Positions 1-64,000 of a stretch of 64,000 bases of DNA are shown here, piece by piece (the stretch's first letter is position 1; each line of letters starts with the position of its first letter). The notes beneath the pieces are model-generated. The model saw nothing but the letters and a program-made list of their open reading frames with translations, ran no database searches and was not told the DNA's origin. The position numbers and the translations under genes are program-made. The stretch is from Patescibacteria group bacterium (GTDB lineage: Bacteria; Patescibacteriota; Patescibacteriia; JACRDY01). The stretch is taken from the NCBI GenBank assembly GCA_041671565.1, contig JBAZBH010000001.1, positions 71,552 through 135,551 of the forward strand, in the 5' to 3' direction.

Positions 1-211
1 TTACCTGCCGCATGTTATGCAAGCGGTAAGAAATATCGATTTGTTTCAAAAGATAATCGCCGTTGCCTTCATCCAGGTCTTTAGCCGCGCCGGCGACAGC
101 CACGATGTCACAGTCGCCCATTAAACCCTCTTTTTCCAACCAACCACGAATCGCCGGCTGAAGACGGAAATCAATGCAATGGAGGACTAGGGAGGAACAA
201 TGATGTGACAT
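1..211 (-). CDS. Partial CDS (3' end runs off window); N-terminus MSHHCSSLVLHCIDFRLQPAIRGWLEKEGLMGDCDIVAVAGAAKDL, hypothetical (CxDxR motif)
   Basis: Own reverse-complement translation from the ATG at 209-211; open to the window edge. No recognisable family. Confidence 0.35.
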   Translation of the reverse strand, partial: MSHHCSSLVLHCIDFRLQPAIRGWLEKEGLMGDCDIVAVAGAAKDLDEGNGDYLLKQIDISYRLHNMRQV

Positions 212-243
212 AAACTTAAAAAAAATAATTATAATGATAGTAT

Positions 244-444
244 AGCTCAAAACTCAAAGCTCAAAAGTCCCCAGCATACGCGGGGCAGGCAAAACCACAA
301 GTCAAAAGGCAAAACTACAGTTCTTAACCTCTTATTCAAGAGATTTACTTATCCTCTTCTAATACCTTTAGTATCAAGTACCAAGAAGATTAAGTTTTTA
401 GCTTTGAGCTGTGGTTTTGACTTTTGAGCTTTGAGTTTTGAGTT
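244..444. repeat. Composite imperfect palindrome: arm agctcaaaactcaaagctcaaaagtc (244-269) versus gacttttgagctttgagttttgag (419-444), with a central GC hairpin ccccagcatacgcgggg
   Basis: Reverse-complement match of the arms read directly from the sequence. Confidence 0.7.
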
Positions 445-451
445 AAATAAT

Positions 452-880
452 CTACTGATGAGGTAAATCTCGATACTTTTTCTTTCTTACTACTTTCAGC
501 CGCGCCAATTCTTTTTCAATCTTCGCGGACAGACCGACAAATTCTTCGGTGTCAAACCGTTTTTCCGCCAGCAGTTTTTTGGCCCTTTCACGACCGGCTT
601 CGGCCCGGGCTTCGTCAATCTCTTCGGCGTGCTCAGCCGAGTCGGCAAGAATGGTCACTTTTTCCGGTCCCACCTCCACAAAACCGCCGGAAACCGCAAT
701 CGAAGTTTCTTTCCCGTCACTCACTATTTTTAATTCCCCCGGCAACAACGCCGACACTAGTGGCAGATGATGCGGCAAAACCGTAATCTCGCCCATTTTG
801 GTGGGAATACTTATCTGGTCCACCTCGGCGTCATAAACCGTCCGCTCCGGCGTGGTAATAATAAACTTTATCTTTGGCAT
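452..880 (-). CDS. atpC: F0F1 ATP synthase epsilon subunit
   Basis: 142-aa ORF; operon position after atpD; length and sequence typical of epsilon. Confidence 0.85.
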   Translation of the reverse strand: MPKIKFIITTPERTVYDAEVDQISIPTKMGEITVLPHHLPLVSALLPGELKIVSDGKETSIAVSGGFVEVGPEKVTILADSAEHAEEIDEARAEAGRERAKKLLAEKRFDTEEFVGLSAKIEKELARLKVVRKKKYRDLPHQ

Positions 881-882
881 AA

Positions 883-958
883 TTAACTCTTAGCTCTTAG
901 CCGATAGCTCATAGCGGTTAGGTCTTTCCTATCGGCTAAGAGCTATCGGCTATCGGCT
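883..958. repeat. Intergenic palindromic repeat, family A (ccgatagc/ctatcggct units)
   Basis: agctcttagccgatagc...ggctaagagctatcggctatcggct; related copies at 6050-6121 and 6640-6705. Confidence 0.7.
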
Positions 959-959
959 G

Positions 960-2333
<1,374 letters not shown>

Positions 2334-2518
2334 TTAGAATTATAATGAATTAAGCCCGCTCGTCTTCGCGAGCGGGTCCGCTCAAGCCCGAAGGGCTATG
2401 AGCGGAAATCAAGAATTAGGAATCAAGCTGACTTGACTGCCACTTCTTGCGCCTTAAACATTTGACTTTTCAAAGCTAACGGTGTTAAATAAGGACAAAC
2501 ATCCAACTGGAGGAAACC

Positions 2519-2854
2519 ATGCGCTTCAACCTTCAACAAACACTTCTCGTGGTTCTAGCGGTTTGCTATTTTACAATGCTCAGCACGACATTAATGGGTT
2601 ACTTCATGAAAGTCCAGTTACTCGAGGTGCCCAAATTTTGGCGCACTCGCCTCCAAACCGGCAAACCAGCGGAAAAAGCCGTCATCCTGGGCTTATCGCC
2701 AGTCTTGTTCCTCCTCGCTGCCTTGGCGGCTTGTTGCCCATTCATTCTCTTCTTAGGCGAAATCGCGTTCAAGGCCGTCGGAACCGGTTTTGCCTGGCTC
2801 TTTGAGAAAACCCAAGAAAAATTTTCCCCCTTCCTCGCGCAATTTACCGCCTGA
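2519..2854 (+). CDS. Small hydrophobic membrane protein (hypothetical), on the opposite strand inside the atp operon
   Basis: Strong SD in caactGGAGGaaaccATG; hydrophobic 111-aa product; intrinsic terminator directly downstream. Confidence 0.55.
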   Translation: MRFNLQQTLLVVLAVCYFTMLSTTLMGYFMKVQLLEVPKFWRTRLQTGKPAEKAVILGLSPVLFLLAALAACCPFILFLGEIAFKAVGTGFAWLFEKTQEKFSPFLAQFTA

Positions 2855-2880
2855 AAACCACCATTTACTCTCACCTTCAC

Positions 2881-2910
2881 GCCGCTCCACTCAGAGCGGT
2901 TTTTTCTTTT
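2881..2910 (+). terminator. Rho-independent terminator (ccgctc-cactca-gagcgg then T-run)
   Basis: Stem-loop followed by TTTTTT, read from the sequence. Confidence 0.6.
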
Positions 2911-2959
2911 GAAAGATCAAACAACCGGCAATTCTTAATTATTAATTTTTAATTCTTAA

Positions 2960-3880
2960 TTATTCTAGCGCCGCCTTACCGCTGGCAATCTCCGCAATCT
3001 CGGTGGTAATCGCCGCCTGCCGGGTTTGGTTATAGCTCAGCGTCAGATCGTCAATCATGTCGCTGGCCGCATCACTGGCGTTCCGCATCGCCGCCATCCG
3101 GGCGCTATGCTCAGCCGCGTTGCTTTCCAGCATCGCCTGATAAATCTGCACCTCAATCAGTCGTGGCAAAAGCTCATTCAATATCGTCTTAGCATTCGGC
3201 TCAAACAAATACTCCGTCCCCGTCTCCTGGTTTTTATGTTTTAATGTTTTCATGTTTTCATGGTTTGCCACCTGCCCCAACATTTCATCCGCCACCGACT
3301 CCAACGGCAACAACTGCTTTACCCGCGGGATTTGCCGTAAAACCGAAATAAAATCAGTGTAAACAATCACTATCCGATCATATTTTTCGGCCAAATAATC
3401 GCTTGTCACCATTTTGGACAGGAATCGAATGTCAGCCACTTCATTTAAAATATCAGCTTTCGGAAAATCAGCGACCACGGTATAGCCGAGTTTAAGGAGC
3501 GTTCTCGCGCCTTTACTGCCGAGCGACAAACAATCCACTGCCACTCCCCCGCTAGACTTCAACTTCTTAATATAATCAACTGCCAATTTTATCGCCTGCT
3601 GGTTAAATGACCCGCACAAACCGCGATTGGAAGTGACCAAAATCACGGCCACGCGCTTGATCTTTTCTCTCGGCAAAAGGAGCGGGTGCAATTTAACCTT
3701 GGTTTTCTTCGCGACATCCAAAATCATTTCCCAAGCCAAGGTGGAATACGGCCGGGTCGCCAAAACACCGTTCACCGCGCGGCGCATTTTGGAAGATGCC
3801 ACCATTTCCATCGCCTTGGTGATTTTTTTGGTATTATGGATTGATTTGATCCGTCGCCGGATATCGCGAGTGCTGGGCAT
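2960..3880 (-). CDS. atpG: F0F1 ATP synthase gamma subunit
   Basis: 306 aa; N-terminus RDIRRRIKSIHNTKKITKAMEMVASSKMRRA typical of gamma. Confidence 0.9.
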   Translation of the reverse strand: MPSTRDIRRRIKSIHNTKKITKAMEMVASSKMRRAVNGVLATRPYSTLAWEMILDVAKKTKVKLHPLLLPREKIKRVAVILVTSNRGLCGSFNQQAIKLAVDYIKKLKSSGGVAVDCLSLGSKGARTLLKLGYTVVADFPKADILNEVADIRFLSKMVTSDYLAEKYDRIVIVYTDFISVLRQIPRVKQLLPLESVADEMLGQVANHENMKTLKHKNQETGTEYLFEPNAKTILNELLPRLIEVQIYQAMLESNAAEHSARMAAMRNASDAASDMIDDLTLSYNQTRQAAITTEIAEIASGKAALE

Positions 3881-3927
3881 AGGTAGGTTGTTAGGTCGAT
3901 AGGTCGTTAAGTTGTTAGGTTACAAAA

Positions 3928-5448
3928 TTATTTAATTAAATAATCTAAAGTGGCGCGGTAGTCTTCAATGGCTTGCTTGAGACCGGCGGCGATTTCGTCG
4001 GTTAGTTCTTTTTTAGCAACAATTTCGGTCAGGATTTTCTTGCCGCTGGTTGCTAAGTACTTGTGCAAACCGGCTTCAAACTCGGCCACCTTCTCCAGCG
4101 GCACATCGTCCAAATAGCCGTTAATGCCGGCGTAAATGATCGCCACCTGATTTTCCACCGCCAGCGGCTCGTATTGGCCCTGTTTTAACACTTCCTGCAT
4201 GCGCTGGCCGCGGTTTAGCTGCTTTCTTGTGCTTTCATCCAAATCCGAGCCAAACTGGGCAAAAGCGGCCAATTCGCGATATTGCGCCATATCCAGTTTT
4301 AGTTTGCCCGCCACCTTTTTCATGGCTTTAATCTGGGCAGCTGAACCGACGCGTGAAACCGACAAACCGGTGTTCAAGGCCGGCCGGATGCCTTGGTAAA
4401 ACAAATCGCTTTCCAAATAAATCTGGCCGTCGGTAATGGAAATGACATTGGTCGGAATATAAGCGGAGACATCGCCGGCTTGGGTTTCAATAATCGGCAA
4501 AGCGGTCAAACTGCCGCCGCCGTAATTTTTGTTCAATTTCGCGGCGCGCTCCAAAAGCCGTGAATGGAGATAAAAAACATCGCCCGGATAAGCCTCACGA
4601 CCCGGCGGCCGGCGGAGAAGAAGTGAAATCTGGCGATAAGCCACCGCGTGCTTGGAAAGGTCGTCATAAACCACCAGCGCGTCTTTGCCCTGATCCATAA
4701 AATATTCACCCATGGCACAACCGGCGTAAGGCGCGATAAACGACAACGCCGCCGGATCCGACGCGCCAGCGAGGACCACAATAGTGTATTCCAGAGCGCC
4801 GCGCTTTTCCAATTCGGCGACAATCCGCGCTACTTTCGACTCTTTCTGACTAATCGCCACATATATACAAACCATGTCCTGGCCCTTTTGATTAATAATG
4901 GCGTCAATCGCCACCGCGGTCTTGCCGGTCTGGCGGTCGCCGATAATCAGTTCTCGTTGGCCGCGGCCGATTGGAATCATGCTGTCAATCGCCTTAATGC
5001 CGGTCTGCACCGGCTGAGTAACGGCTTGGCGGGTAATGACGCGCGGCGCGATTTTTTCCACCGGATAAAAAGCGGCGGCCTTAATCTCGCCTTTGCCGTC
5101 GAGCGGCCGGCCCAATGGATCCACCACGCGGCCAACCATGCCCGGACCGACCGGCACTTCCAAAATCCGGCCCGTGGTTTTGACTGTATCGCCTTCTTTG
5201 ATTTCCAAATAATCACCAAGGACAATGGCGCCGACACTGTCTTCTTCCAAGTTCAATGCCAGACCAAAAATGTTATTGGGAAATTCCAACATTTCGCCGG
5301 ACATACAGTCGGCTAGGCCGGAAATGCGGGCGATACCATCGCCAATTTCCACCACCGTGCCGGTTTTTTCCACTTTGGCGCCGGCCTGAAAATCGGCAAT
5401 CTGTTGTTTAAGAGTTTCGATGATGTAATCTTTGGTTGAGGTTGACAT
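3928..5448 (-). CDS. atpA: F0F1 ATP synthase alpha subunit
   Basis: Walker A GDRQTGKT; 506 aa. Confidence 0.95.
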
Positions 5449-5461
5449 ATTATTTTTATAT

Positions 5462-5632
5462 TTAGATTATATAATTTATAGATTAAGACGCTAGTAAAAC
5501 TTAATTAAAAATCCAAAGTTCAAAGTGCAAAGTTCAAATCAAGTTCAAAGGCCAAAACTCTGGCACCTTTTGATCTTTGGACTTGATTTGAACTTTGAAC
5601 TTAGGGTTTTGAACTTTAAACTGCGTTAAAAC
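5462..5632. repeat. Intergenic palindrome of caaagttcaaag-type tandem units
   Basis: ccaaagttcaaagtgcaaagttcaaatcaagttcaaagg versus ctttggacttgatttgaactttgaactt. Confidence 0.65.
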
Positions 5633-5636
5633 GGCT

Positions 5637-6041
5637 TTACTCTATCAATCGCTGTTTCAGAAGCTCTAATCTAGTCTTCAAACTCGCATCCAAAACCTCG
5701 TCCCCGATTTTGACCACCAGCCCGCCAATCAGCGTCGAGTCTTCAATCGCGGTTAAATCAACTTCCTTAACTTTATGAATTTTCTTGATTTTATCGGCCA
5801 ATTCTTTTAACTCCGCGCCGGTCAGCTTTCTCGCCGAAATCACTGCCGCCGCCAAAATGCCGTTCTGTAAGTCACTATAACGGTTAAATTCAAAGATTAT
5901 CTTCGGCGCCAAGCGCAGGCCCTTGTTTTTTGCCAGTACCTTAACAAAGTTAGCGATATTCAGGCTAACCTGTTTTTTGTCCAGACCCGCCAGACTTTCG
6001 GCTAATGACCGGGCATATTTTTTCGGACTAATCTTCTTCAT
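5637..6041 (-). CDS. atpH: F0F1 ATP synthase delta (OSCP) subunit
   Basis: 134 aa; operon position between atpF and atpA. Confidence 0.75.
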   Translation of the reverse strand: MKKISPKKYARSLAESLAGLDKKQVSLNIANFVKVLAKNKGLRLAPKIIFEFNRYSDLQNGILAAAVISARKLTGAELKELADKIKKIHKVKEVDLTAIEDSTLIGGLVVKIGDEVLDASLKTRLELLKQRLIE

Positions 6042-6049
6042 AAATCAGC

Positions 6050-6121
6050 TCGTAGCTCTTAGCCGATAGCCCATAGCAGTTAGGTTTTTCCTATCGGCTA
6101 TCCGCTATCGGCTATCGGCTG
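6050..6121. repeat. Intergenic palindromic repeat, family A copy
   Basis: ctcttagccgatagcccatagc...cctatcggctatccgctatcggctatcggct. Confidence 0.7.
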
Positions 6122-6619
6122 TTATTTTATCTCCTTCAACGCCGCCTCAATCACCTTTTTATCAACTTCCTTAGTCAGAGCTGACGCCAAAACCTTGCTG
6201 GTTACCGCTACTACCAAATCCGCCACTTCACTTTTGAGTTCAGCCGAGAGCTTAGTTTTGTCAGCCGCCAGTTGTTCTTTGCCTTTCTGAACGATTTTTT
6301 CCACTTCCACTTTCGCTTTCTGCGCCGTTTCCTGTTTATTAACTTCCGCTTCTTGGCGCGCCTGCTCTAGAAAAGCCGCGGCTTCGGTCTTAGTGGCTTT
6401 AAGTATTGCCGCTCGTTCGCTGTCGGTCGCGGTCATCTTTTCTTCAATCGCCTTAGCGTCTTGCAGGCTTTTATCGATTTTTGCGGTCCGTTCATTCATG
6501 ATCTTCTGGAGCGGCTTCAACGCAAACTGCCACAAAACTCCCAAAACAATCAGAAAATTAACGATTTGGGCAATAATCAGTTTAAGGTCGAGGTGGAAGG
6601 TTTCGATCAGGGCGTCCAT
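6122..6619 (-). CDS. atpF: F0F1 ATP synthase subunit b
   Basis: Probable start MDALIETFHLDLKLIIAQIVNFLIVLG (TM helix then coiled coil). The longer ORF to 6646 overlaps the upstream palindrome. Confidence 0.75.
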   Translation of the reverse strand: MDALIETFHLDLKLIIAQIVNFLIVLGVLWQFALKPLQKIMNERTAKIDKSLQDAKAIEEKMTATDSERAAILKATKTEAAAFLEQARQEAEVNKQETAQKAKVEVEKIVQKGKEQLAADKTKLSAELKSEVADLVVAVTSKVLASALTKEVDKKVIEAALKEIK

Positions 6620-6639
6620 ATATTCAGCGGATAGCCGAT

Positions 6640-6705
6640 AGCGCATAGCGGATAGCGATCCGTTCCTAACGGCTATCGGCTATCTGCTATCGGCTAATTT
6701 AATTT
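6640..6705. repeat. Intergenic palindromic repeat, family A-like
   Basis: cggatagccgatagcgcatagcggatagc...ctaacggctatcggctatctgctatcggct. Confidence 0.65.
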
Positions 6706-6762
6706 TTAACCTCGAAGGACTAACCCGGGTTTAACCGCCGTTAATCCTCCGTTCGTCAAAAA

Positions 6763-6999
<237 letters not shown>

Positions 7000-7061
7000 T
7001 TAGACTATTTATTTTTTCTTTTAAAGTCGGCTGACGATGAAAATTAATTATTATTTAGTTA

Positions 7062-7150
7062 TATGGCTTTATGGTTCTATGGTTTTATGGTTTTATGGTT
7101 AGGTGGCGTTTATCAACCCTTAACCATAAAGCCATAAAACCATATAACCA
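7062..7150. repeat. Intergenic palindromic repeat, family B (atggttttatggtt ... ccataaagccataaa)
   Basis: Related copies at 22317-22400 and 44938-45016. Confidence 0.7.
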
Positions 7151-7154
7151 TTTT

Positions 7155-8048
7155 TTAATGTTCTTCCGCCGTGGTGGCAATCGTCAAATAAACCAAGGTT
7201 AAAATGGAAAAAATCAGCGCCTGAATCAAACCGACGATAATCTCCAAAAACATAAACGGAATCGGCAGGATAAAAGCGAATAACGCCGCCATCGAGGTCA
7301 GGAGCACTTCGCCGGCAAAAATGTTGCCGAATAACCGGAAAGAGAGCGACGCCACCTTGGCCATTTCACCGATGATTTCCACGATACCGACAAAGGCTTT
7401 AATCGGATTGACCAGTATCACCGCCGGATCTTTGACAATTTTCCCCGGAATTTCCAAGAAAGCTTTGATATTTATAAACTTATTGAGATATTTCCACCAG
7501 CCAATCATGATCACGCCGGCAATGTGCGAGCCGACTACCGCCAAAAGCGCGAGCGCGAGAGTGGTGTTAAGATCAGCCGTGCCACCGCGGAAAAACGGGA
7601 TAAAGATCGACTCCCCGCCATGAATCTCCTGAAAACCAATCGTGCCGACGCCAGGCAACATGCCTAGCCAGTTATTGACTAAAATAAACAAAAATAAGGC
7701 AAAAACAATCGGAAAAAACTTCTGCGACTTTGACCGGCTACCGGTGACTGTATCGCAAAGGTCCAGCGCGCCATCGATGATAAATTCAAAAAAGTTCTGC
7801 AGGCCGCGGGGTATTTGCCGCAGGCGGGTTCTTAAAACCAAAGCCAGGACCGCCAAAATTAGCACCACCGCCCAAGAATTAATCAGCGAATTGGTAATGG
7901 TAAATTTACCGACCGTCAAAACCGGCTCGGCAAACAAAGTCGTTTCCTGACTGCCGGTGGAAGTTTCTGTTTCCCGGCCAACCGGAGCAACGGCGTTTTG
8001 GCTGTTCAAAACTGCCGCCGCGGCTGAATTTTCCAAATTAGCGCTCAT
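7155..8048 (-). CDS. atpB: F0F1 ATP synthase subunit a
   Basis: Contains LSFRLFGNIFAGE with the conserved Arg. Start taken at the internal Met MSANLENS; the longer ORF to 8150 overlaps atpZ. Confidence 0.85.
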   Translation of the reverse strand: MSANLENSAAAAVLNSQNAVAPVGRETETSTGSQETTLFAEPVLTVGKFTITNSLINSWAVVLILAVLALVLRTRLRQIPRGLQNFFEFIIDGALDLCDTVTGSRSKSQKFFPIVFALFLFILVNNWLGMLPGVGTIGFQEIHGGESIFIPFFRGGTADLNTTLALALLAVVGSHIAGVIMIGWWKYLNKFINIKAFLEIPGKIVKDPAVILVNPIKAFVGIVEIIGEMAKVASLSFRLFGNIFAGEVLLTSMAALFAFILPIPFMFLEIIVGLIQALIFSILTLVYLTIATTAEEH

Positions 8049-8328
8049 GATTTTTATCTTTTGTCTTATCAACTGGTTTAAACTCCTCCATTTGCTTGAT
8101 GGCCTTGCCGCCCTCGCGGACAATGCCGACGGTAGAGATAATAAAGGCAATAAGAACGGCGCCTAAGTAACCCCACGGTTCGAGCCCGTATTTCTGATCT
8201 AACCAATCGCCCAAAAATATCGCTAAAACAATCGGTCCGGCAATCCAACCGCTGAGCTGGAAAAAAAGAATTAATGACGGCTGCCACCAGGGTTTTTCGT
8301 CGTTTTTTTTAGGTTCAAGCTCAGTCAT
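8038..8328 (-). CDS. ATP synthase protein I / AtpZ-like small membrane protein
   Basis: Two TM helices; first gene of the atp operon; start taken at MTELEPKK. Confidence 0.5.
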   Translation of the reverse strand: MTELEPKKNDEKPWWQPSLILFFQLSGWIAGPIVLAIFLGDWLDQKYGLEPWGYLGAVLIAFIISTVGIVREGGKAIKQMEEFKPVDKTKDKNHER

Positions 8329-9060: not shown

Positions 9061-9062
9061 AA

Positions 9063-9108: not shown

Positions 9109-9984
9109 TTAAGCGAGTCTAAACAACTCCTTGGTATTTTTGAAAGTCTCCGCCGCCACTTCTGCCAAGCTCAAACCTTTTAACTCGGCGACTTTCTCGG
9201 CCACGAACTCCACAAAAGCCGGCTCGTTGCGCGTCCCCCGATGCGGCTCAGGCGCGAGAAACGGCGCGTCGGTTTCCACCAAAATCCGGTCTAAAGGCAA
9301 CTCTTTAACAATCGCCTGCAGTTCAACCGCCTTTTTAAAAGTAACAATCCCGGTAAAACCGACGAAAAATCCCAATGCCACAAACTTTTTCGCCTGTTCC
9401 ATGTTCCCGCCAAAACAATGAATCACGCCTCTGATTCTTGATTCTTGATTCTTGATTCTTGATTCTAATATCCCCAACAAATCGTCATAAGCGCCATACG
9501 GCTCGCCCTTATTCCCCCGGCAATGCAACACCAACGGCAAGTCCAGTTCCCCGGCCAGTTTAATAAACCCGGCCAAGGTCTCCCGCTGAACTTTCTTAAT
9601 TTCTTCAGCCGGCAGTTTATTCTCGCCAAAATAGTAATAATCCAGACCCACCTCCCCGATGCCCACCACTTTCTCTGACGACAAAGCCAATTCTTTATAT
9701 TTGTTATAATCAAACTTTTCTTGCTTGGTGACAAACTTGTATTCTTCGCCGTTAAAAGTGGCCGACTCGGTGATGTCGCCGGTCAGATGAATCGGGTGCA
9801 GACCAACCACAGCATAAACGCCTTCCGGATATTTTTCCGCGATTTTGATGCTCCGCGCCGAAGTGGAAAGCTGCGAACCGATATTGATCAGCCAAATCCC
9901 TTTACTTAAAGACCGCCGGATCACTTCCTCGGCGTCGTCTTTGTAGGCGTTGAAATTGATGTGGCAGTGAGAGTCAAACAACAT
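9109..9984 (-). CDS. tatD: TatD family metal-dependent hydrolase/DNase
   Basis: Start at the conserved MLFDSHCH motif. The upstream ORF extension to 10008 is encoded by the hairpin repeat and is likely spurious. Confidence 0.85.
   Translation of the reverse strand: MLFDSHCHINFNAYKDDAEEVIRRSLSKGIWLINIGSQLSTSARSIKIAEKYPEGVYAVVGLHPIHLTGDITESATFNGEEYKFVTKQEKFDYNKYKELALSSEKVVGIGEVGLDYYYFGENKLPAEEIKKVQRETLAGFIKLAGELDLPLVLHCRGNKGEPYGAYDDLLGILESRIKNQESRIRGVIHCFGGNMEQAKKFVALGFFVGFTGIVTFKKAVELQAIVKELPLDRILVETDAPFLAPEPHRGTRNEPAFVEFVAEKVAELKGLSLAEVAAETFKNTKELFRLA
9433..9472. repeat. Tandem heptanucleotide microsatellite (gattctt about 5.5 copies) inside the tatD coding sequence
   Basis: Direct read ctgattcttgattcttgattcttgattcttgattcta; encodes ESRIKNQESRIR in a loop before GVIHCFGG. 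Confidence 0.9.
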
Positions 9985-10057
9985 ACACAGATTGGCACAG
10001 ATTAACACAGATACTCACAGATCCGTGCTAATCTGTGTTAATCTGTGTAAATCTGTG
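9985..10057. repeat. CACAGAT-unit hairpin: 3 direct units then 3 inverted units
   Basis: acacagattggcacagattaacacagatactcacagatccgtgctaatctgtgttaatctgtgtaaatctgtgcc; same architecture at 11717-11778 and 39213-39287. Confidence 0.85.
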
Positions 10058-10060
10058 CCG

Positions 10061-11716
10061 TTAATATATCTCCTTACGGTAGCACTCCTCACAATAAACC
10101 TTCTCCGGCCGATCTGGCGCGTAGGTGGTTTTAAACTCGTTAGCGCAACCTTCTTTCATGCATTGGCGATGGTATAGCGTTTTATTCTTATGGGTTTTTA
10201 GCCGCCGCAACATTCGGCAATCCGGGCAACAATCGGGCAAAGGAATATTTTGCTGTTGATAAAATCTGAATTCCGGTTTAATAATTTTATAATTGCGGCT
10301 GCACTCGGCGCAAGCCAAAATCTCTTGGCAAATTTTTTCGTCCAAACCGGCAACCTCATCAGGAATAGTTTTGATCGTTTCTTTTCCCTTAGTTCGGCCG
10401 ATTTCTTCCTGCCATTTGATGCCTTGCTTTAACACTTCCTCTTTGGTCAAGGCAAAATTTTCCAGCGAAGCGCGAGTTTCGTTCAACCCAAACGGCGCCA
10501 AGGCATAAGGGAAAAACTCACCCCACTCGCCCGCCGCTTTCATGGCAGTAATAATTTTGGATTTTAACTGATTATAATCGGCTTCGGCATATTTTTTATT
10601 TAATAGGCAAAAGGTTTGATTTTTTAAGCCAACTGAGCCAAAAATTTCCTTGGAACTAAAAATGCTGTCGCTATACCAAATGTGGCTGCTTTCCCAGACG
10701 ATCGAACAAAAAAAGGTGCCATAAGAGCCGCGGCCGGTAGAAGCGCACTGATAGGCTAATTGCGAAGGCGTGCCGCCATAACCGGTGCAATCATTGGCAT
10801 CTTTCATGTTAGAGCCGTTAATAACAAACCCGCAATCTTCGGCGTCCCAAATATCATAAACCTCATGGCAATTTTTGGTATAACGGACAAAATCACCGGT
10901 CGTTTTAACGGTTTTTAAATTATGGCTATAGGGGAAAATCGCTTCAGCTTTAACTGTCTGGTATTTCTGGCGCAGCTTAACTATTGCCGTTCGGCTGGCA
11001 AGTTGTTTTTTAAACTCCAGAATCTCGGCTTCGGTCGCTTGCCGGTTCCAAAGATAGTTAGTTTGATTGCGCAGATTAGTACAACCAAAACAATTGTGAC
11101 AACCAACACAGTCATAACAAAAATGGCAGTCGGCCGAGTCGCGAGAATATTCTAAATAAGAGCAATTATAACAATTTTCAATGTCAGTGCACTCATAGCA
11201 TAATTCGCTTTTATAACAAAAGGCGGCGTCCAGGCAATCGCGGGAATTATAAACCGACCAGCCATATAAACAATCTTCGCAATCGGTGGAGCCGGAAAAT
11301 TGCAAATAACAATTTTTATTCCGTGAAGTGTGGTGGGTATATTCGCTATTGATGGAATTAGTATTATTAATAGCGAGCCGCGGCACGGCCAAAAGGAGCT
11401 CGCCAAATTGCTCAAAAAATCCCCTTTGGAAATCATAATCGCGGCCAAAATCCAGTCCGTCCCACTTATCGCTAAACCAACATTCGTGGCAATAAACTTT
11501 ATAAGGTTTGTCCGGCGAATAAACCGAGACGATATTTTGTTGGCATAAATCGCATTTCCGCTGATACAAAATATATTCATTGCGCCAAACCGCCCGCTGG
11601 CGCGCTCGGCACGGCGGGCATTCCGTTGGCTCGGGCACGCCAATCCGGCCGTAAAACGCGCGGTCCTCGGGGTAAATGGTGAAGATGGATTGGCAGTTTT
11701 TACATTGCATAAGCAC
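10061..11716 (-). CDS. Cysteine-rich protein, paralog 1 of 4 (zinc-ribbon-like termini, central CxxC clusters); function unknown
   Basis: 551 aa. N-terminus CKNCQS..FYGRIGVPEPTxCPxCR; C-terminus LYHRQCMxxGCANEF.TTYAPDRPEKVYCEECYRKEIY; internal CYNCxxCxNCFGCxNLRN motifs. Confidence 0.6.
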   Translation of the reverse strand: MLMQCKNCQSIFTIYPEDRAFYGRIGVPEPTECPPCRARQRAVWRNEYILYQRKCDLCQQNIVSVYSPDKPYKVYCHECWFSDKWDGLDFGRDYDFQRGFFEQFGELLLAVPRLAINNTNSINSEYTHHTSRNKNCYLQFSGSTDCEDCLYGWSVYNSRDCLDAAFCYKSELCYECTDIENCYNCSYLEYSRDSADCHFCYDCVGCHNCFGCTNLRNQTNYLWNRQATEAEILEFKKQLASRTAIVKLRQKYQTVKAEAIFPYSHNLKTVKTTGDFVRYTKNCHEVYDIWDAEDCGFVINGSNMKDANDCTGYGGTPSQLAYQCASTGRGSYGTFFCSIVWESSHIWYSDSIFSSKEIFGSVGLKNQTFCLLNKKYAEADYNQLKSKIITAMKAAGEWGEFFPYALAPFGLNETRASLENFALTKEEVLKQGIKWQEEIGRTKGKETIKTIPDEVAGLDEKICQEILACAECSRNYKIIKPEFRFYQQQNIPLPDCCPDCRMLRRLKTHKNKTLYHRQCMKEGCANEFKTTYAPDRPEKVYCEECYRKEIY

Positions 11717-11778
11717 AGATACTCACAGATTAACACAGATAGTCACAGATCTGTGCTAATCTGTGTTAATCTGTGTCG
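11717..11778. repeat. CACAGAT-unit hairpin between paralogs 1 and 2
   Basis: cacagatactcacagattaacacagatagtcacagatctgtgctaatctgtgttaatctgtg. Confidence 0.85.
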
Positions 11779-14037: not shown

Positions 14038-14194
14038 AAATTATAAAATAATTTTTAATTTCTAATTTAAAATTTTTAATGAATTCTTAATTTCTAATTT
14101 TAAATTGTCGGCTAACCTAGGCTTTGGGTTTAAAAATTAAGAATTAAGCCTTAAAAATTAATTAAAAATTAGAAATTTTAAATTAAAAATTCCC

Positions 14195-15740: not shown

Positions 15741-15862
15741 AATGCCCAAATCCCAATGACCAATCAATGTCCAATTTTCAAATCCCAATCAAGTTCAAAA
15801 GTTAAAAGTTTAAAACCCGAACCAGGGAGTTATTGGTCATTGGGGCTTGGATATTGGTCATT
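15741..15862. repeat. Intergenic repeat, family D (aaatcccaatgaccaat...attggtcattgg), about 120 bp
   Basis: Near-identical copy at 51487-51608; degenerate relatives at about 31830-31960 and 35155-35250. Confidence 0.8.
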
Positions 15863-22316: not shown

Positions 22317-22400
22317 ATATGGTTTTATGGTTTTATGGCTCTATGGTTGGATAAGTTAAAGAGTCTAACCATAAAGCCATAAAGCCATAAAGCCATAAAC
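22317..22400. repeat. Intergenic palindromic repeat, family B copy
   Basis: ggttttatggttttatggctctatggttggataagttaaagagtctaaccataaagccataaagccataaagccataaac. Confidence 0.7.
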
Positions 22401-22458
22401 TTACTTAAAAACCCCGCCACAGCGAGGTCTCCACCTAACAACTTAACGACCTATCAAC

Positions 22459-23670: not shown

Positions 23671-23743
23671 ATTTTTTTAGCAACAACCGCGAACTTTTTA
23701 CTTTTGACTTGTGCTTTTGAATTTTGACTTTTGCCTTTTGACT

Positions 23744-30036: not shown

Positions 30037-30069
30037 AGAAAAGATTTAGGATTTAAGAATGGTGGTGAT

Positions 30070-40928: not shown

Positions 40929-41013
40929 AACAAAGTTATAAAGTTGAAAGTTATAAAGTTATAAAGTTTTCTAGTTCCCTAAACTTTCTACTTTATAACT
41001 TTATAACTTTCAA
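40929..41013. repeat. AAGTTATAAAGTT-unit hairpin between paralogs 3 and 4
   Basis: aagttataaagttgaaagttataaagttataaagtt ... aactttataactttataactttcaact. Confidence 0.8.
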
Positions 41014-42654
41014 CTAATAAATCTCTTTCCGATAACATTCCTCGCAATAAACCTTCTCCGGCCTTTCCGGCGAATAAGTGGTCTCGATTTCCGTCCCGCA
41101 TTGGTCGCATTTTCTTTGGTATAAGTGCCGCGGGTTACGGAGCTGCATGCGGTCTAAATGACGGCAATCAGGGCACTTCCGGGGAATCGGCAAGCCAAAT
41201 TGGCGATAAAAACCAAGCTCCGGCTTGATAATTTTATAGTTTTTGCCGCAAACGACGCACGCCAAAACTTCATTGAGAATATCATCCGGCACCGCCTTGA
41301 TCTCGGCTGGCGTTTGATAAACCTGCTTTTGATATTCCCGCGCGTCTTTCTGTTTCCAAGCCCAACCTTTGGCCTTCACCTCGGCCTCACTCAACGGAAA
41401 ATAATCATTGGCCACGGTTTCGTTATAGGCAAAAGGCGAAATCTGAATTGGGAAAAACTCACCCCACTCCCCGGTCTTTTTTAGATGTTCAATAATTTTT
41501 GGCACTAACTGATTATATTCTTTTTCCGTGTATTCTTTGTTGAGAATGCTAAAATGCCGCTTGCGCATCACGGAACAGCCAAATAAATTTTTACTGCTGT
41601 CGCACCAATCGCTGTAATAAATATCATTGCACTGGTAACAGGCAAAAGAATAAAATGCCCGATAATTTTTCCAGGAAGCGATGTAATCACAGCACAGTTC
41701 GTTGTTTTCCGTGTAATTATTGTCATAGCAATCTTTGAGGTCAATCACCTGCGCCGAGTAAGCGCTGTCCTCGCACCGCTTGGCGTCAAACGACTGCCGG
41801 CAGTTTTTGCTTTCATTGATATAATCGCCGCTAACCCGGACATTTCTCAACCCTTGCAAATATCGCCGCGGCAATTTTAATTTATTTTTTTCCAGCTCGG
41901 CTTTGACTTCTGCCACCTTTCCCGGATTGCACCAATTTAACTCGGCTTTGAACTTTTCATAATCCGCTTCGCTGTATTGGCGGTTGAAAATCTGATGGTG
42001 GACATTCCGCAATCCAGCGCAACCGATACACTCGGAACAACCGCGGCAATCATAGCAATAAAACAAATTGTTACTGTCAAAACAATCCTGGCACCAGCAA
42101 CAGCTGTAAAGATGCTCGGAAGTGACACACTCATAACAAAGTTCGCAGTCGCGGATCAAAAGCGAGTCAACGCAATCTTTGGAATAATAAGGGTTGCCGT
42201 AAAGGCAATTTTCAATAAAAATACTGCCGTAGCAGAGATAACTGTTTTTGGCGTCGCCCAAATAATTGCAATAATCGCTGTTAACGATATTGCCACCAGC
42301 CTGCACCGTGCCAGCGCGCGGCACGGCTTTCAAGAGTTCATCGTATTGGCTAAAAAACGGCCGGCTAAAATCAAACTCCCGGCCAAAAGCCGTCGGATCC
42401 CATTTGTCTGAATACCAACAATCGCGGCAATAAACTTTATAAGGCTTATCCGGCGAATAATTGGATAAGATCTTTTTATGGCAAAGCTGACACTCAGCCG
42501 AATAAAAAACCCGTTCGTTGCGGAGGGCCATCCGGCGCTGAGCGCGGCAATCTGGACAGTGCGTTGGCTCGGCTAAACCAAGCTTAGCGTAGAACGCGCG
42601 GTCCTCGGGGTAGATAGTGAATGGTTGACTGCAATTTTTACATTGCATAAACAT
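41014..42654 (-). CDS. Cysteine-rich protein, paralog 4 of 4
   Basis: 546 aa; MFMQCKNCSQPFTIYPEDRAFYAKLGLAEPTHCPDCR ... PEKVYCEECYRKEIY. Confidence 0.6.
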   Translation of the reverse strand: MFMQCKNCSQPFTIYPEDRAFYAKLGLAEPTHCPDCRAQRRMALRNERVFYSAECQLCHKKILSNYSPDKPYKVYCRDCWYSDKWDPTAFGREFDFSRPFFSQYDELLKAVPRAGTVQAGGNIVNSDYCNYLGDAKNSYLCYGSIFIENCLYGNPYYSKDCVDSLLIRDCELCYECVTSEHLYSCCWCQDCFDSNNLFYCYDCRGCSECIGCAGLRNVHHQIFNRQYSEADYEKFKAELNWCNPGKVAEVKAELEKNKLKLPRRYLQGLRNVRVSGDYINESKNCRQSFDAKRCEDSAYSAQVIDLKDCYDNNYTENNELCCDYIASWKNYRAFYSFACYQCNDIYYSDWCDSSKNLFGCSVMRKRHFSILNKEYTEKEYNQLVPKIIEHLKKTGEWGEFFPIQISPFAYNETVANDYFPLSEAEVKAKGWAWKQKDAREYQKQVYQTPAEIKAVPDDILNEVLACVVCGKNYKIIKPELGFYRQFGLPIPRKCPDCRHLDRMQLRNPRHLYQRKCDQCGTEIETTYSPERPEKVYCEECYRKEIY

Positions 42655-42664
42655 TATCTCCTAC

Positions 42665-42752
42665 GAATTACGAATCAGCGCGAATGTACGAATTACGAAT
42701 CGCCGTGGTGGCTGGATTCGTACATTCGCGCTGATTCGTAATTCGTAGGGGT
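42665..42752. repeat. Perfect roughly 35-bp-arm inverted repeat (ctacgaattacgaatcagcgcgaatgtacgaat / attcgtacattcgcgctgattcgtaattcgtag), cgaat family
   Basis: Read directly; upstream of paralog 4. Confidence 0.85.
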
Positions 42753-44937: not shown

Positions 44938-45016
44938 CATGGTTTTATGGTTATATGGTTATATGGTTGGATGAATTAAAGAGTCTAACCATAAAGCCAT
45001 AAAACCATATAACCAT
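44938..45016. repeat. Intergenic palindromic repeat, family B copy
   Basis: catggttttatggttatatggttatatggttggatgaattaaagagtctaaccataaagccataaaaccatataaccat. Confidence 0.7.
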
Positions 45017-46819: not shown

Positions 46820-46960
46820 TCTGGCTGGAAGCGATGCGAATGCTACGAATTACATGCGAATCTACGAATGCGGAGCCTTATTTGTAGTATTCGCATGCCT
46901 GCCTTGCCGAATCCGCCGATTTGGCGGAGCAGGCAGGTCATTCGTAGATTGGCATCGCCA
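46820..46960. repeat. Intergenic palindrome, family F (gcgatgcgaatgctacgaattacatgcgaat ...), half-copy at 36581-36640
   Basis: Shared 30-nt string between the two loci plus a local inverted partner. Confidence 0.7.
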
Positions 46961-49859: not shown

Positions 49860-49921
49860 TTTAACACCTTAAATCTAACCCTCTGGACTCGGGACTTTGG
49901 ACTTTGGACTTTGGACTATTA

Positions 49922-51475: not shown

Positions 51476-51486
51476 AAATCAAAAAA

Positions 51487-51608
51487 TGTCCAAATCCCAA
51501 TGACCAATCAATGTCCAATATCCAAATTTCAATCAAGTTCAAAAGTTAAAAGTTTAAAACCCGAACTAAGGAGTTATTGGTCATTGGGGCTTGGAAATTG
51601 GTCATTTT
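51487..51608. repeat. Intergenic repeat, family D copy (near-identical to 15741-15862)
   Basis: More than 90% identity over about 115 bp by eye. Confidence 0.8.
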
Positions 51609-55715: not shown

Positions 55716-55904
55716 TAAACTTATTTAAACTTTTTAAAATTAAAATTCGCGGCCTTGGCGGTTCGCGCCTGTTGGGCCTGCTGAAAACGGAAAACCGCCG
55801 GTGTGCGATAGCCCGGCCGGCCGGAGCGGTTGCCGACTTTAGCGTGGTTCTTCATATGATTTAAGAATGCCTGTAGATTAGCTTTTTGCAGTATAACTTG
55901 GTTA

Positions 55905-56010
55905 AAATCACATAACACATAACATGGAACAAGGGTGGTTATAGGTCTCTTGTTATGTGTTCCATGTTATGTGATATCTTGGTTATTAGTCTTAACACCA
56001 ATTACCACCA
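55905..56010. repeat. Intergenic repeat, family E, inverted copy
   Basis: Reverse complement of 30070-30190. Confidence 0.8.
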
Positions 56011-56020
56011 TTCTTAAATC

Positions 56021-58307: not shown

Positions 58308-58340
58308 GCCCGTCGATTCATTTCGATGGGCGGTTTTTTT
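58308..58340. terminator. Rho-independent terminator (gcccgtcga-ttcatt-tcgatgggc then T8)
   Basis: 9-bp stem with one G.U pair, then a T-run. Confidence 0.6.
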
Positions 58341-58969
58341 TAGTTAAAATTATTCCTATCCCTCTCCCACAGCAAAGGGTTATCTCGGATATATTCCACG
58401 ATATTGTTATAATCATCCTCGTTACTGATAATATGCTCATAATAATTCCTCTGCCATAGCCGATGATTAAACGGCAACCAATGGTTTTGTTTAACCTGTT
58501 TGATATATTCATTAGTGGTCATAGTTTTAAACCATTGGATAAATTGAGGCACGCCTCGTAGGGGCGGACCCGTGTGTCCGCCCCGAACAAGGGTGTTTCC
58601 GGCCATAACAAATTTATTACCGTCCATGGATACAGGTTCTGAACAAACGGCCGAGTTTGAACAAATCCCAGGGCGGACACGCGGGTCCGCCCCTACAACA
58701 CCCATGATCTCAATAATGGCGTGTAAATGGTTAGGCATAATGACAAATGGGCCTAATTTGATGCCAGGGAATTTCTTTTCCAATTTTAGCCACCAATCCA
58801 AGACCAGCCTGCCAGCTTGGTTTAAAACCATCTGTCTGTCTTTAATCTCGCCAAATAGGTGTTTCTTATCTTGGGTGCAAAGGGTAATAAAATAATCGCC
58901 TGACTGGGTGTAATCGTAGGTGGCAAGGCGAATGGAATGGCGATGATGGAGGTTGGGTTGATAAGGCAT
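58340..58969 (-). mobile_element. REP-associated tyrosine transposase (RAYT; IS200/IS605-like Y1 transposase) with an in-frame 150-bp insertion
   Basis: HuH motif MPNHLHAII; RAYT-like C-terminus WQRNYYEHIISNEDDYNNIVEYIRDNP; extra 50 aa relative to typical RAYTs. Confidence 0.65.
58557..58696. repeat. REP-like GC-rich palindrome doublet inside the RAYT ORF (cgtaggggcggacccgtgtgtccgcccc ... gggcggacacgcgggtccgcccctac)
   Basis: The two ends are inverted copies, each itself a hairpin. Confidence 0.75.
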
Positions 58970-62018: not shown

Positions 62019-62031
62019 ATTTTTTATTATA

Positions 62032-62128
62032 AAGTATTCAGGGAACAGTATTCAGTATTCAGGGGAGGGGTCGGTATCCACCGTTCGCGGATATAGTTCC
62101 CTGAATACTGAATACTGTTCCCTGAATA
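62032..62128. repeat. Intergenic palindromic repeat, family C copy
   Basis: aagtattcagggaacagtattcagtattcagggg...ccctgaatactgaatactgttccctgaatact. Confidence 0.7.
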
Positions 62129-64000
62129 CTAATCTTGTTTAATTTCCTTAATCTTCTCCCTTAATTCAATGGCTCGTTCAAAGTCCAGCCCCTCCGCCGC
62201 CGCCTGCATCTGCAATTCCAGCTCAATCACCAGTTGTTCGCGGTCCAGATTTTTACCAGTCAAGTCGGGTGAAATAACTTCTTCTTGCTTTCTGATTTCT
62301 TTAACAATACTCTCCGGCGTGATGCCGTGTTTCTTATTGTAGGCCAGCTGAATCGCGCGCCGGCGGTTGGTTTCGCTAATCGCTGATTTGATCGAGCCTG
62401 TCTCGGTGTTGGCATACATCACCACTTTGGCATCAACATTTCGCGCCGCCCGGCCAATCGTCTGGATCAAACTGCGGGCGTTGCGGAGAAAGCCTTCTTT
62501 ATCCGCGTCCAGTATCGCCACCAAAGCCACTTCCGGCAAATCCAAACCTTCACGGAGCAGATTGATGCCGACGAGTACATCGAACTTACCCAGCCGCAAA
62601 TTCTGGATGATCTTAATCCGGTCCAAGGTGTCAACTTCGCTGTGCAAATACTCGGCTTTAATCTTTTGTTCCACCAAATAACGGGTCAAATCCTCGGCCA
62701 GGCGCTTGGTCAAAGTGGTGACCAGCACGCGGTAACCTTTGGCAATCGTCTGCCGGATTTCGCCTTCAACATCTTTAATCTGGCCCTCCGCCGGCTTGAT
62801 AAAAATCTCCGGGTCAACCAGCCCGGTCGGCCGAATAATCTGCTCTACCACCTGGCCGGAGTGTTCCAGTTCGTAGTCGCTGGGCGTCGCCGAAGTGTAA
62901 ATCACCCGGCCCAGATATTTTTCAAATTCCGGGAAAGTCAGCGGCCGATTGTCATAGGCTGACGGCAAACGGAAGCCGTGGTCGATCAAATTCTCCTTCC
63001 GCGACCGGTCGCCGCCGTACATGCCGTGGACTTGCGGCAGAGCGACATGGCTTTCATCCACCACCATTAGCCACTCGCCTTTGGTTTTGAAATAATCTAA
63101 TAAAGTGTAAGGCGGTTCGCCCGGCTGCCGGCCGTCAAAGTGGCGGGAATAATTTTCCACACCTTGGCAGTAGCCTAATTCCTCAATCAGTTCTAAGTCA
63201 TAATTCGTCCGCTTTTCCAGTCGATAAGCCTCCACCGGCCCCAACTGCGGCAATCTTTCTTTTAACTCCTGCCGGATAGTTTTCAAAGCTGACTGTTTGC
63301 CCACTTCGGTAAAAACAAAATGCTTGGCCGGGAAAATCCAAGCGCTCGGCAAGTCCTGAATCCGAGCAAAGGTGATGGCATGGAGTTCAATAATTTTAAC
63401 TAACCTCTGGCCGTCAAACTCTAACCGCAAAACCGTGGTGCCCGAGCCGGCCATCAGCTCCAGCCGGTCGCCGCGCCGCCGGAAACTGCCGGGCTTCAGC
63501 CGATTATCCTCATTTTCATATTGCACTGCCACCAGCTGGCGGACCAAATCATCCGGGTTAATTTTCTGCCCGACTTTTATCTCCTGGGCGCTGGCTTTGA
63601 AGTTGTCCGGCCGGCCGAGGCCATAAATGCAGGAAACCGACGCCACAATAATCACATCATCGCGCGACATCAAGGCCGCGGTCGCCTCCAGCCGCAGCTG
63701 CTCAATCTTCTCGTTAATCTGGACATCTTTCTCAATATAAGTGTCGGAAATCGGCAGATAGCTTTCCGGCTGGTAATAGTCATAATAGGAAACAAAAAAA
63801 CACACCTTGTTTTCCGGGAAAAAATCGCGGAACTCGTTGTAGAGCTGGGCGGCGAGCGTTTTGTTGTGCGACAAAACCAGGGTCGGCTTTTGGATCTTTT
63901 GAATCACATTGGCCACCGTAAAAGTCTTGCCCGAGCCGGTCACGCCAAGGAGCGTCTGCTGGGGAAACTTGCCATAACCCTTAACTAATTGTTCAATGGC
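62129..64000 (-). CDS. uvrB: Excinuclease ABC subunit B (N-terminus beyond window end)
   Basis: GVTGSGKTF Walker A; helicase motifs; ORF remains open past 64000. Confidence 0.9.
   Translation of the reverse strand, partial: AIEQLVKGYGKFPQQTLLGVTGSGKTFTVANVIQKIQKPTLVLSHNKTLAAQLYNEFRDFFPENKVCFFVSYYDYYQPESYLPISDTYIEKDVQINEKIEQLRLEATAALMSRDDVIIVASVSCIYGLGRPDNFKASAQEIKVGQKINPDDLVRQLVAVQYENEDNRLKPGSFRRRGDRLELMAGSGTTVLRLEFDGQRLVKIIELHAITFARIQDLPSAWIFPAKHFVFTEVGKQSALKTIRQELKERLPQLGPVEAYRLEKRTNYDLELIEELGYCQGVENYSRHFDGRQPGEPPYTLLDYFKTKGEWLMVVDESHVALPQVHGMYGGDRSRKENLIDHGFRLPSAYDNRPLTFPEFEKYLGRVIYTSATPSDYELEHSGQVVEQIIRPTGLVDPEIFIKPAEGQIKDVEGEIRQTIAKGYRVLVTTLTKRLAEDLTRYLVEQKIKAEYLHSEVDTLDRIKIIQNLRLGKFDVLVGINLLREGLDLPEVALVAILDADKEGFLRNARSLIQTIGRAARNVDAKVVMYANTETGSIKSAISETNRRRAIQLAYNKKHGITPESIVKEIRKQEEVISPDLTGKNLDREQLVIELELQMQAAAEGLDFERAIELREKIKEIKQD

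Follow-up and report, generated by a model that had tools for sequence, protein, structure and literature searches.

Intergenic palindromes of tandem heptamers in a Patescibacteria genome resemble the STRR hairpins of cyanobacteria

The stretch of DNA analysed here (the window) comprises 64,000 nt of contig JBAZBH010000001.1 from a member of the Patescibacteria, also known as the candidate phyla radiation (CPR), and many of its intergenic spacers contain long palindromes whose arms are built from short tandem units. Nearly all genes of the window are encoded on the minus strand and the GC skew is negative over the full length; 86% of the window is coding and 14% intergenic, with an overall GC content of 0.47. 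A complete atp operon (atpBEFHAGDC, 8150..452) was identified by Pfam, together with metG, glycolysis genes, rpsB-tsf, uvrABC and other housekeeping genes. The best matches of AtpD are found in metagenome-assembled genomes of Patescibacteria/CPR at an identity of 83% or less, and the cyanobacterial octamer HIP1 is not enriched (1 observed versus 1.7 expected). An Rfam scan of the whole window returned no family reaching its gathering score, and a search of the window for tRNA and tmRNA genes found none. Three independent assemblies of the same organism from at least two samples (L081, L207 and L324) are 99.99-100% identical to the window, and the palindromes are therefore not assembly artefacts.

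The palindromes are real and occur far beyond chance. A strict detector, defined as a tandem 6-mer followed by its reverse complement in tandem at a distance of at most 200 nt, yielded 19 matches in the window and none in each of 20 Markov shuffles. Scanning the whole window revealed 28 clusters of long inverted repeats, 25 of which are intergenic. When the 50 spacers were tested individually, requiring an inverted-repeat score of at least 14 that also exceeded those of all 30 shuffles, 24 passed, and in 19 of these the periodicity of the arms at 7-8 nt reached 0.6 or more. For most elements the arm autocorrelation has its maximum at 7 nt, for families B, G and J at 8 nt, and the units of family H measure about 10 nt. 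The initial annotation, which saw a palindrome in almost every spacer, overstated this abundance: about half of the spacers contain a long palindrome, and a palindrome or a single array is present in about 35 of 50 (about 70%). The elements have a size of 60-215 bp and a mean GC content of 0.37, compared to 0.47 for the window, and, single arms included, they add up to about 3.7 kb, which corresponds to about 42% of the intergenic DNA and about 6% of the sequence. Reading every spacer together with an inverted-repeat search recovered all nine families (A to I) that had been distinguished before, each where it had been placed. Many of the copies listed at that time are indeed palindromes, but several turned out to be single arms, namely G1 and G2, which are inverted relative to each other and 18.5 kb apart, F3 and I2. 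Families J, K, L (GATTTAA), M and N as well as the arrays O, P and Q could be added. There are at least 14 unit types and eight linked clusters.

The elements are dispersed, recurring families that behave like small non-autonomous elements. At least three common 12-mers were found for 27 pairs of spacers, compared to 0-1 pairs in shuffles, and some copies are nearly identical, as D1 and D2 agree at about 90% of about 120 bp and E1 and E2 at about 95% of about 185 bp. The idea that each palindrome is just the private terminator of its gene, lacking any relatedness to the others, which the initial annotation had named as the case that would speak against a repeat system, does not hold in view of these links. 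Copies within families A, B, C, F and H share an irregular order of their units, and the two arms of an element are near-perfect complements in which even such irregularities are mirrored, the arms of family C being a mosaic of two variants. Recurrence elsewhere in the genome and on other contigs was found too. Two further C copies, flanking a bAvd gene, lie 2-5 kb past the right end of the window in the same genome (L207), which gives five copies in the 72 kb of window and extension. A metagenome scan using a word from the C arm recovered two JGI contigs (L231 and L253) that have nothing but repeats in common with the window, their genes being unrelated. The recurrences on these contigs comprise K (126 nt at 90% identity), N (146 nt at 83%), C (89%), an F arm (94%) and B (83%), and L253 specifically carries copies of K1 (90%), N1 (83%) and F3 (94% identical).

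Elements are also nested into one another, as one L stem encloses E1 and another one encloses D3. A 21-nt GC-rich element (CCCAGCATRCGCGGGGCARGC) occurs in exactly two copies, one on each strand (270-290 and 30140-30160; 0.01 expected), and represents a clean insertion in E1 but not in E2, and in one arm of M1 but not in the other. It had been described as the centre of two otherwise unrelated elements, which is correct for its position at the apex of E1, whereas in M1 it is located in the left arm. No consistent target-site duplication was found around the copies of C, E and the 21-nt element, of which there are few and for which there are no empty sites. With its clean insertion into heptamer hairpins without a duplication, the 21-nt element can be likened, by description and not by sequence, to the small dispersed repeats (SDR) of 21-27 nt that Elhai and co-workers reportedly described from Nostoc in 2008 and that PMC3116915 mentions, yet only two copies are present here.

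Copies of family H accompany a gene family. Two tandem pairs of genes (10061-13425 and 39288-42654, minus strand) encode four Cys-rich paralogues of 546-551 aa that contain treble-clef zinc fingers (zf_Tbcl); the C-terminus YC(E/R)ECYRKEIY is found in three of the four compared, and the syntenic locus of a relative (L083) lacks the first pair. CACAGAT palindromes (H1 to H3) lie 3′ of three of these genes and J1 lies 3′ of the remaining one. As the paralogues are only 44-45% identical, H1 to H3 are likely to have arisen by conversion or re-insertion and not by passive co-duplication.

In the sense of the mRNA, the hairpins mostly start 0-10 nt past the upstream stop codon and end 5-30 nt before the next start codon. 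In tight spacers they fill the entire gap, with predicted minimum free energies (MFE) of −30 to −63 kcal/mol, and in C3 and J1 the stop codon is situated inside the hairpin. In long spacers the hairpin lies downstream of a canonical terminator (B2, B3 and F3). Canonical terminators are separate features (e.g., 2881-2900, 9066-9085 and 58308-58331), also where they share a spacer with a palindrome, and a function of the palindromes as intrinsic terminators was ruled out, as a T-rich tail (at least six T in the 9 nt downstream) follows only 3 of 27 elements. RNA folding energies were better for the plus strand in 9 elements, better for the minus strand in 11 and equal in 7, which is no bias. As the folding energy shows no preference for the transcribed strand, the symmetry appears to be kept at the level of DNA. 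Two of the spacers, 3′ of tatD and uvrC (9060-9108 and 49855-49900), share the module ATAGCGGAGTAACG(R)GGC...GCC(Y)CGTTG, followed by a T-rich stretch in mRNA sense, which looks like a small repeated family of terminators distinct from the heptamer palindromes.

Each junction of the atp operon contains an element, in agreement with what had been reported before. From atpB onwards these are B1, A3, A2, K1, G1, Q1, A1 and M1, the junction after atpG holding only the short Q1 array and an extra open reading frame (ORF) on the plus strand. The annotated starts of atpF (6626-6646) and tatD (9986-10008) lie within palindrome arms; AtpF is shorter in relatives (165 aa), so that the true starts of both genes are probably located further downstream than annotated. 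The elements are listed in Table 1.

Table 1. Repeat elements and the RAYT-like gene of the window; positions are counted from its first nucleotide.
Feature	Position	Strand	Description	Context
M1	236..452		compound palindrome, CTCAAAR heptamers; outer arms 246-269 / 419-442; inverted-repeat score 24 (null maximum 10), period 7	atpC to next gene
21-nt GC mini-element CCCAGCATACGCGGGGCAGGC	270..290	+	in left arm of M1	absent from right arm of M1
A1	883..957		palindrome, TAGCNNN heptamers	between atpD and atpC
Q1	2929..2959		TTCTTAA/TTATTAA array	just past atpG stop; 28-nt exact match after atpH in relative L082
G1	3881..3927		single arm, TAGGTYGT units, no inverted partner (MFE −0.9)	fills atpA-atpG spacer
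K1	5498..5627		palindrome, CAAAGTT-type heptamers	between atpH and atpA
A2	6050..6120		palindrome	between atpF and atpH
A3	6626..6696		palindrome	between atpE and atpF; overlaps annotated atpF start
B1	7047..7159		palindrome, ATGGYTTT octamers; period 8, 0.91	directly 3′ of atpB stop
H1	9984..10059		palindrome, CACAGATNNN units	3′ of zf_Tbcl paralogue stop
H2	11714..11775		H-family palindrome	3′ of zf_Tbcl paralogue adjacent to that of H1
C1	13432..13524		palindrome, AGTATTC/AGGGAAC heptamers	3′ of cvpA stop
N1	14039..14191		very AT-rich palindrome (GC 0.15)	3′ of metG stop
D1	15741..15860		element of about 120 bp, GACCAAT-type heptamers	
B2	22318..22399		palindrome	downstream of canonical terminator
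G2	22425..22458		single arm in the opposite orientation to G1, 23 identical nt	directly 3′ of stop codon
M-like array	23698..23743		CTTTTGA-type heptamers, single, no partner	
I1	24774..24841		palindrome, GAATAGT heptamers	
G3	25937..26046		full palindrome, GTTAGGTN octamers	
I2	28838..28900		single arm, CTATTCC units, then GC palindrome GCCTGCCTGCGCAGGCAGGC	
L1 + E1	30041..30256		outer stem of GATTTAR heptamers around E1 (CACATAA-type units)	21-nt mini-element at apex, 30140-30160 (−)
E1	30050-30245	+		inside L1 stem
N2	30718..30859		AT-rich palindrome, 41-nt arms, 88%	
L2 + D3	31770..31998		outer stem around D3 (31823-31942), a diverged D copy	
D4	35173..35248		palindrome, AATGACC/AATATCC/AAATCCC heptamers, diverged D copy	3′ of eno stop
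F3	36590..36640		single arm, near-identical to left arm of F2	
M3-like arrays	37582..37745		CAAAATT/CAAAAGT around GC-rich palindrome	
H3	39211..39290		CACAGAT palindrome	3′ of third zf_Tbcl paralogue
J1	40932..41015		palindrome, AAAGTTAT octamers, 26-nt perfect arms	
F1	42660..42749		TACGAAT heptamers, perfect 34-nt arms	homologous arm in CPR locus L017
B3	44939..45016		palindrome	downstream of canonical terminator
C2	45887..45979		palindrome	3′ of tsf stop
F2	46836..46958		compound palindrome of CGAAT units with nested GC palindrome	
O1	49880..49919		single array, GGACTTT heptamers	directly 3′ of uvrC stop; O1-like units form a palindrome in L083
D2	51485..51599		copy of D1	
E2	55868..56016	−	copy of E1 in reverse orientation that lacks the 21-nt insert	
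RAYT-like Y1 (HUH) transposase gene	58340..58969	−	PF01797 and NF047646 matches	
C3	62033..62130		perfect 32-nt arms; loop flipped relative to C1 and C2	uvrB stop codon inside element

A relative with about 80% nucleotide identity to the window and an identical AtpE (L082) carries palindromes of other units in the comparable spacers (after tatD, atpB-atpE, atpE-atpF and atpF-atpH), the 5′ untranslated region of atpE being conserved. A further, syntenic relative (L083, AtpG 70%) has shorter spacers at the same junctions and shares some of the units, as it contains GATTTAA, TACGAAT and GGACTC elements. Similar elements were also found in five further loci (L017, L086, L007, L020 and L028), and F1 and the element of L017 have a 31-nt arm in common that includes a compensated A-T to T-A change, at an AtpD identity of 76%. 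Outside this group, the word TACGAAT is common in IMG/VR, and a HIP1-rich contig of a cyanobacterial (pro)phage (L101) contains five intergenic palindromes of tandem heptamers, an arrangement which is of the classical cyanobacterial short tandemly repeated repetitive (STRR) type. Arrays of AGTATTC, mostly direct ones, occur at no fewer than 116 metagenome loci with a GC content of 0.29-0.68. At least 35 contigs of an unrelated organism in JGI sample Ga0082212 (including L208, L212 and L216; GC about 0.48) carry a conserved element, about 100 nt long (GCGGGCTACGCCCGCAAGTATCCAGTATTCAGTATTCAGGATTCAGAATGTGGATTTTCTTGTTTTTTATTGA...), that joins a GC hairpin to AGTATTC heptamers. A BLAST search of F1 against the plasmids of PLSDB gave no match, for which low-complexity masking is possibly responsible, and in a literature search combining CPR with palindromic repeats or RAYT, no description of such repeats from CPR bacteria came up.

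The closest known kind of repeat are the heptamer hairpins of the cyanobacterial STRR, along with other heptamer direct repeats, and STRR had not been considered in the initial annotation. The original units of Mazel and co-workers (1990) are said to be CCCCAGT, TTGGTCA and CAACAGT. STRR, whose function is unknown, have a repeat length of 7 bp and give rise to hairpins in intergenic regions, e.g., that of hupS-hupL (PMC2670836). They resemble the elements described here in consisting of tandem heptamers, in having several unit types per genome and in being intergenic and dispersed, all three of which were observed in the window, and further in the inverted arrays that form hairpins between co-transcribed genes, as at hupS-hupL (PMC2670836), in the window and in L101. 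Even some of the units are common to both, as TACGAAT is found in L101, and the heptamers GAC(C/T)AAT and TTTTGAA of Nostoc (bioRxiv 10.1101/2022.06.06.494920) match the D and M units of the window (GACCAAT and TTCAAAA). The host, on the other hand, belongs to the Patescibacteria, has no excess of HIP1 and is not a heterocystous cyanobacterium, which is a taxonomic and not a structural criterion; moreover, palindromes are the prevailing form in the window and recur as a whole in families of 60-215 bp, and some units have 8 or 10 nt. Heptamer direct repeats are also known from Beggiatoaceae, Cyanobacteria and Bacteroidetes, and horizontal spread is suspected (MacGregor, 2015; PMC4679880). These TAACTGA-type repeats are likewise intergenic heptamer arrays of unknown function near start codons in genomes with few Shine-Dalgarno sites, with a patchy phylogenetic distribution suggesting horizontal transfer; however, they comprise one heptamer in 169 direct sets and 1 indirect set (PMC4679880), while unit types are numerous in the window, predominantly form inverted pairs and in most cases lie just past a stop codon. 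Selfish-looking hairpin families that fill the intergenic DNA of small genomes are found in the organelles of Volvox (PMC2670323) and as RHE in sponge mitochondria (PMC2800124), but these hosts are unrelated, and the abstracts of both papers report no tandem heptamer substructure. Uptake sequences, iterons or centromere arrays and phase variation were set aside, as there are too many unit types and the flanking genes are housekeeping genes.

Weighing these comparisons, we put a probability of roughly 55% on the palindromes being STRR-type hairpin repeats in a CPR genome, i.e., inverted pairs of arrays of short 7-nt (sometimes 8-10 nt) units that form dispersed families at the level of DNA, and by analogy they would best be filed as an STRR-like variant in a new phylum. 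We infer their spread and role as follows. Heptamer arrays would arise and change through replication slippage, and intramolecular templating or conversion would keep the two arms of a hairpin alike. Copying by some mechanism would then take entire palindromes, or one arm alone, to the new intergenic sites at which they are found dispersed, mostly 0-10 nt past a stop codon or at the apex of a palindrome already in place, and palindromes would eventually decay to single arms. Inside operons the elements must be co-transcribed and would fold into RNA hairpins of −30 to −60 kcal/mol without a U-tract, for which reason they cannot be canonical terminators; at most, they may serve as 3′-end barriers, as RNase III-type processing sites or as bridges from stop to start codon. 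Several observations weigh against this interpretation. No transposition or conversion event was observed, and with the three assemblies of the same organism being virtually identical to the window, there is neither an empty site nor a variant in unit number among them. That the window, L082 and L083 have palindromes at corresponding junctions could reflect selection for a hairpin rather than selfish spread. The trait is patchy among relatives, since the closest GTDB relative by AtpD (L001) does not exhibit any elements with the strict detector. Furthermore, AGTATTC arrays in other taxa have an inverted partner at only 8 of 81 loci; as they are mostly direct elsewhere, the palindromic habit seen here is not fully explained by the analogy to STRR.

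The initial annotation had proposed a system like the repetitive extragenic palindromes (REP) and bacterial interspersed mosaic elements (BIME), or like miniature inverted-repeat transposable elements (MITEs), and had pointed to a REP-associated tyrosine transposase (RAYT) gene in the window. Such a gene is present in so far as a RAYT-like Y1 transposase is encoded, which exceeds the cut-off for PF01797 (30.4 bits versus 23) but remains below that for NF047646 (60.5 versus 80 bits). Its HUH (HLHAII) and YYEH motifs are conserved, an identical protein was named RayT by JGI, and a paralogue (P0122, 79%) is encoded on the same 182-kb contig. According to the REP reading, the hairpins would be recognised in single-stranded DNA by this Y1 transposase, which would spread copies of them over the genome. 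Extragenic, partly nested or clustered hairpins in many copies and without target-site duplication would fit such enzymes and are also typical of REP, REPIN and BIME (PMC3116915, PMC2817692, PMC3733652), and the arms of family F begin with CCTAC and end with GTAGG. However, a single GC-rich imperfect palindrome of 20-40 nt per unit, as in REP, was not found; the elements are larger, with 62-204 nt, and AT-rich (GC 0.37), their arms consist of tandem direct repeats, and a GTAG/CGTC head is present in 1 of 27. At least 14 unit types are opposed by one or two RAYT genes, and the flanks of the RAYT-like gene contain loose TCTAAAC arrays and a terminator but no member of the palindrome families, so that the supposed tie between palindromes and this gene could not be upheld. 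The only GTAG-headed hairpins of the window, two inverted GC hairpins (GTAGGGGCGGACCCGYGTGTCCGCCC; 58558-58583 / 58671-58696), lie in frame inside the RAYT-like ORF. Translated, they give VGADPRVRP and GGHTGPPL, which flank a hypervariable insert, and the motifs VGADPxVRP and GEHTGSPL are conserved in homologues of cyanobacteria, Bacteroidota, Planctomycetota and others; this pair resembles a REPIN that has become part of the transposase gene. A REP/RAYT system thus appears quite unlikely, and the RAYT-like protein is only a candidate for a trans-acting enzyme of the palindromes. Even less probable are classic MITEs, i.e., deletion derivatives of a DDE insertion sequence that are moved in trans via their terminal inverted repeats. 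The elements are AT-rich, intergenic and of fitting size, and family E, with two copies in opposite orientation, has the terminal inverted repeats GATTTAAGAATGG...CCATTCTTAAATC, but terminal inverted repeats are a property that all palindromes possess trivially. The entire arm, and not just the termini, is repetitive, target-site duplications are missing at the copies of C, E and the mini-element, no DDE transposase or autonomous insertion sequence with the same ends was found among the scanned ORFs of the window, and the many different ends would require many transposases in a small genome. Correia/NEMIS and ERIC elements, bacterial MITEs of 60-200 bp that are intergenic, co-transcribed and fold as RNA hairpins, resemble the palindromes in these features and, for family E, in their terminal inverted repeats; the palindromes differ by the lack of a TA or other target duplication and of any sequence relation, and we know of no internal tandem-unit structure in Correia/NEMIS or ERIC.

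The hairpins might instead be selected RNA elements that process or stabilise polycistronic mRNA or couple a stop codon to the next start, their family resemblance being secondary. REP, ERIC and Correia elements as well as the RNase III sites of T7 process or stabilise mRNA, and corresponding roles in RNA processing, stability or coupling have been suggested for STRR hairpins (PMC2670836). The placement between stop and start codons, the filling of tight spacers, the occupation of every atp junction, the palindromes of different sequence at the same junctions in L082 and L083, and the base pairing preserved through a double change between F1 and L017 are all consistent with such a role. Yet neither folding energies nor G-U pairs reveal a preference for the transcribed strand, the orientation of the loop is not conserved, B2, B3 and F3 follow canonical terminators, where little transcript is expected, single arms are tolerated at equivalent positions (e.g., G1 between atpA and atpG), and L001 manages without any element, so that we regard this explanation as unlikely on balance. 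A purely local origin, in which slippage and template switching let every spacer build its own array and palindrome and nothing moves from one locus to another, is highly improbable. Heptanucleotide repeats are the commonest class of long simple sequence repeats and have been attributed to polymerase slippage (Mrazek 2007, as cited in PMC4679880), the 3′ arm of the atpB-atpE palindrome of L082 includes a flank that is conserved in the window, and the origin of H1 and H2 coincided with a gene duplication or conversion tract. Nevertheless, near-identical whole elements with common irregularities at unlinked loci and on other contigs, as well as the same 31-nt arm in a genome with an AtpD identity of only 76%, largely refute it. 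A broader view is that of one heptamer-palindrome system across phyla, with a common vocabulary of units, horizontal spread and a copying mechanism not yet recognised, for which the widespread RAYT-like enzyme, with its own GTAG hairpin pair in the ORF, would be one candidate, and which would have been co-opted as intercistronic RNA hairpins where Shine-Dalgarno sites are few. The units TACGAAT, AGTATTC, GACCAAT and TTCAAAA do span Patescibacteria, cyanobacteria, their phages and contigs with a GC content of 0.29-0.68, but this view is a doubtful one at present.

Some further features of the locus were observed. A reverse transcriptase gene (26098-27240, minus strand; RVT_1, with a group-II-like match at 135 bits, under the cut-off) and a bAvd-like gene between two family-C copies just past the window edge (4305-4691 of L207), about 40 kb from the reverse transcriptase gene, may be scattered parts of a diversity-generating retroelement. 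Such a retroelement was ruled out as the source of the D and E copies, as the differences between copies are not adenine-specific. The gene of the formamidopyrimidine-DNA glycosylase (fpg; 30917-31761, minus strand) is divided between two ORFs with a 22-nt overlap, one encoding the N-terminal domain (31393-31761) and the other the H2TH domain and zinc finger (30917-31414), which by sequence corresponds to a frameshift or pseudogene of this DNA-repair gene. Two tandem genes (32003-35153, minus strand) encode cofactor-independent phosphoglycerate mutases of 526 and 520 aa. The 360-nt GC-rich spacer 3′ of tatD (8748-9108) has a strong predicted fold (MFE −112) without an Rfam, tRNA or tmRNA match; a GC-rich stretch is found at the equivalent position of L082, and the spacer could be an unrecognised RNA gene. 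A 545-nt spacer contains a 180-nt palindrome (38817-38996) with perfect 29-nt arms lacking tandem units and a structured GC-rich centre (MFE about −116 kcal/mol), which also has no Rfam match. When 8100-9150 and 38350-39300 were scanned permissively against Rfam, nothing beyond chance miRNA-like matches appeared, and these fell on the H3 hairpin.

Genomes of CPR bacteria are regarded as streamlined and poor in repeats, yet in this stretch one kind of repeat, described so far mainly from filamentous cyanobacteria, accounts for about 42% of the intergenic DNA and about 6% of the sequence. Such repeats can mislead the calling of start codons, as for atpF and tatD, and confuse assembly in CPR metagenomes. 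The intercistronic hairpins of the atp operon offer a concrete place to test the effect of such repeats on the processing of operon mRNA. To our knowledge, the origin and the role of STRR have been open since 1990. A second host, which is very small and gene-poor, narrows down the candidate trans-acting factors, and together with the partly common heptamers it would make the origin of STRR, be it by slippage, templated copying or an enzyme, testable by comparative genomics.

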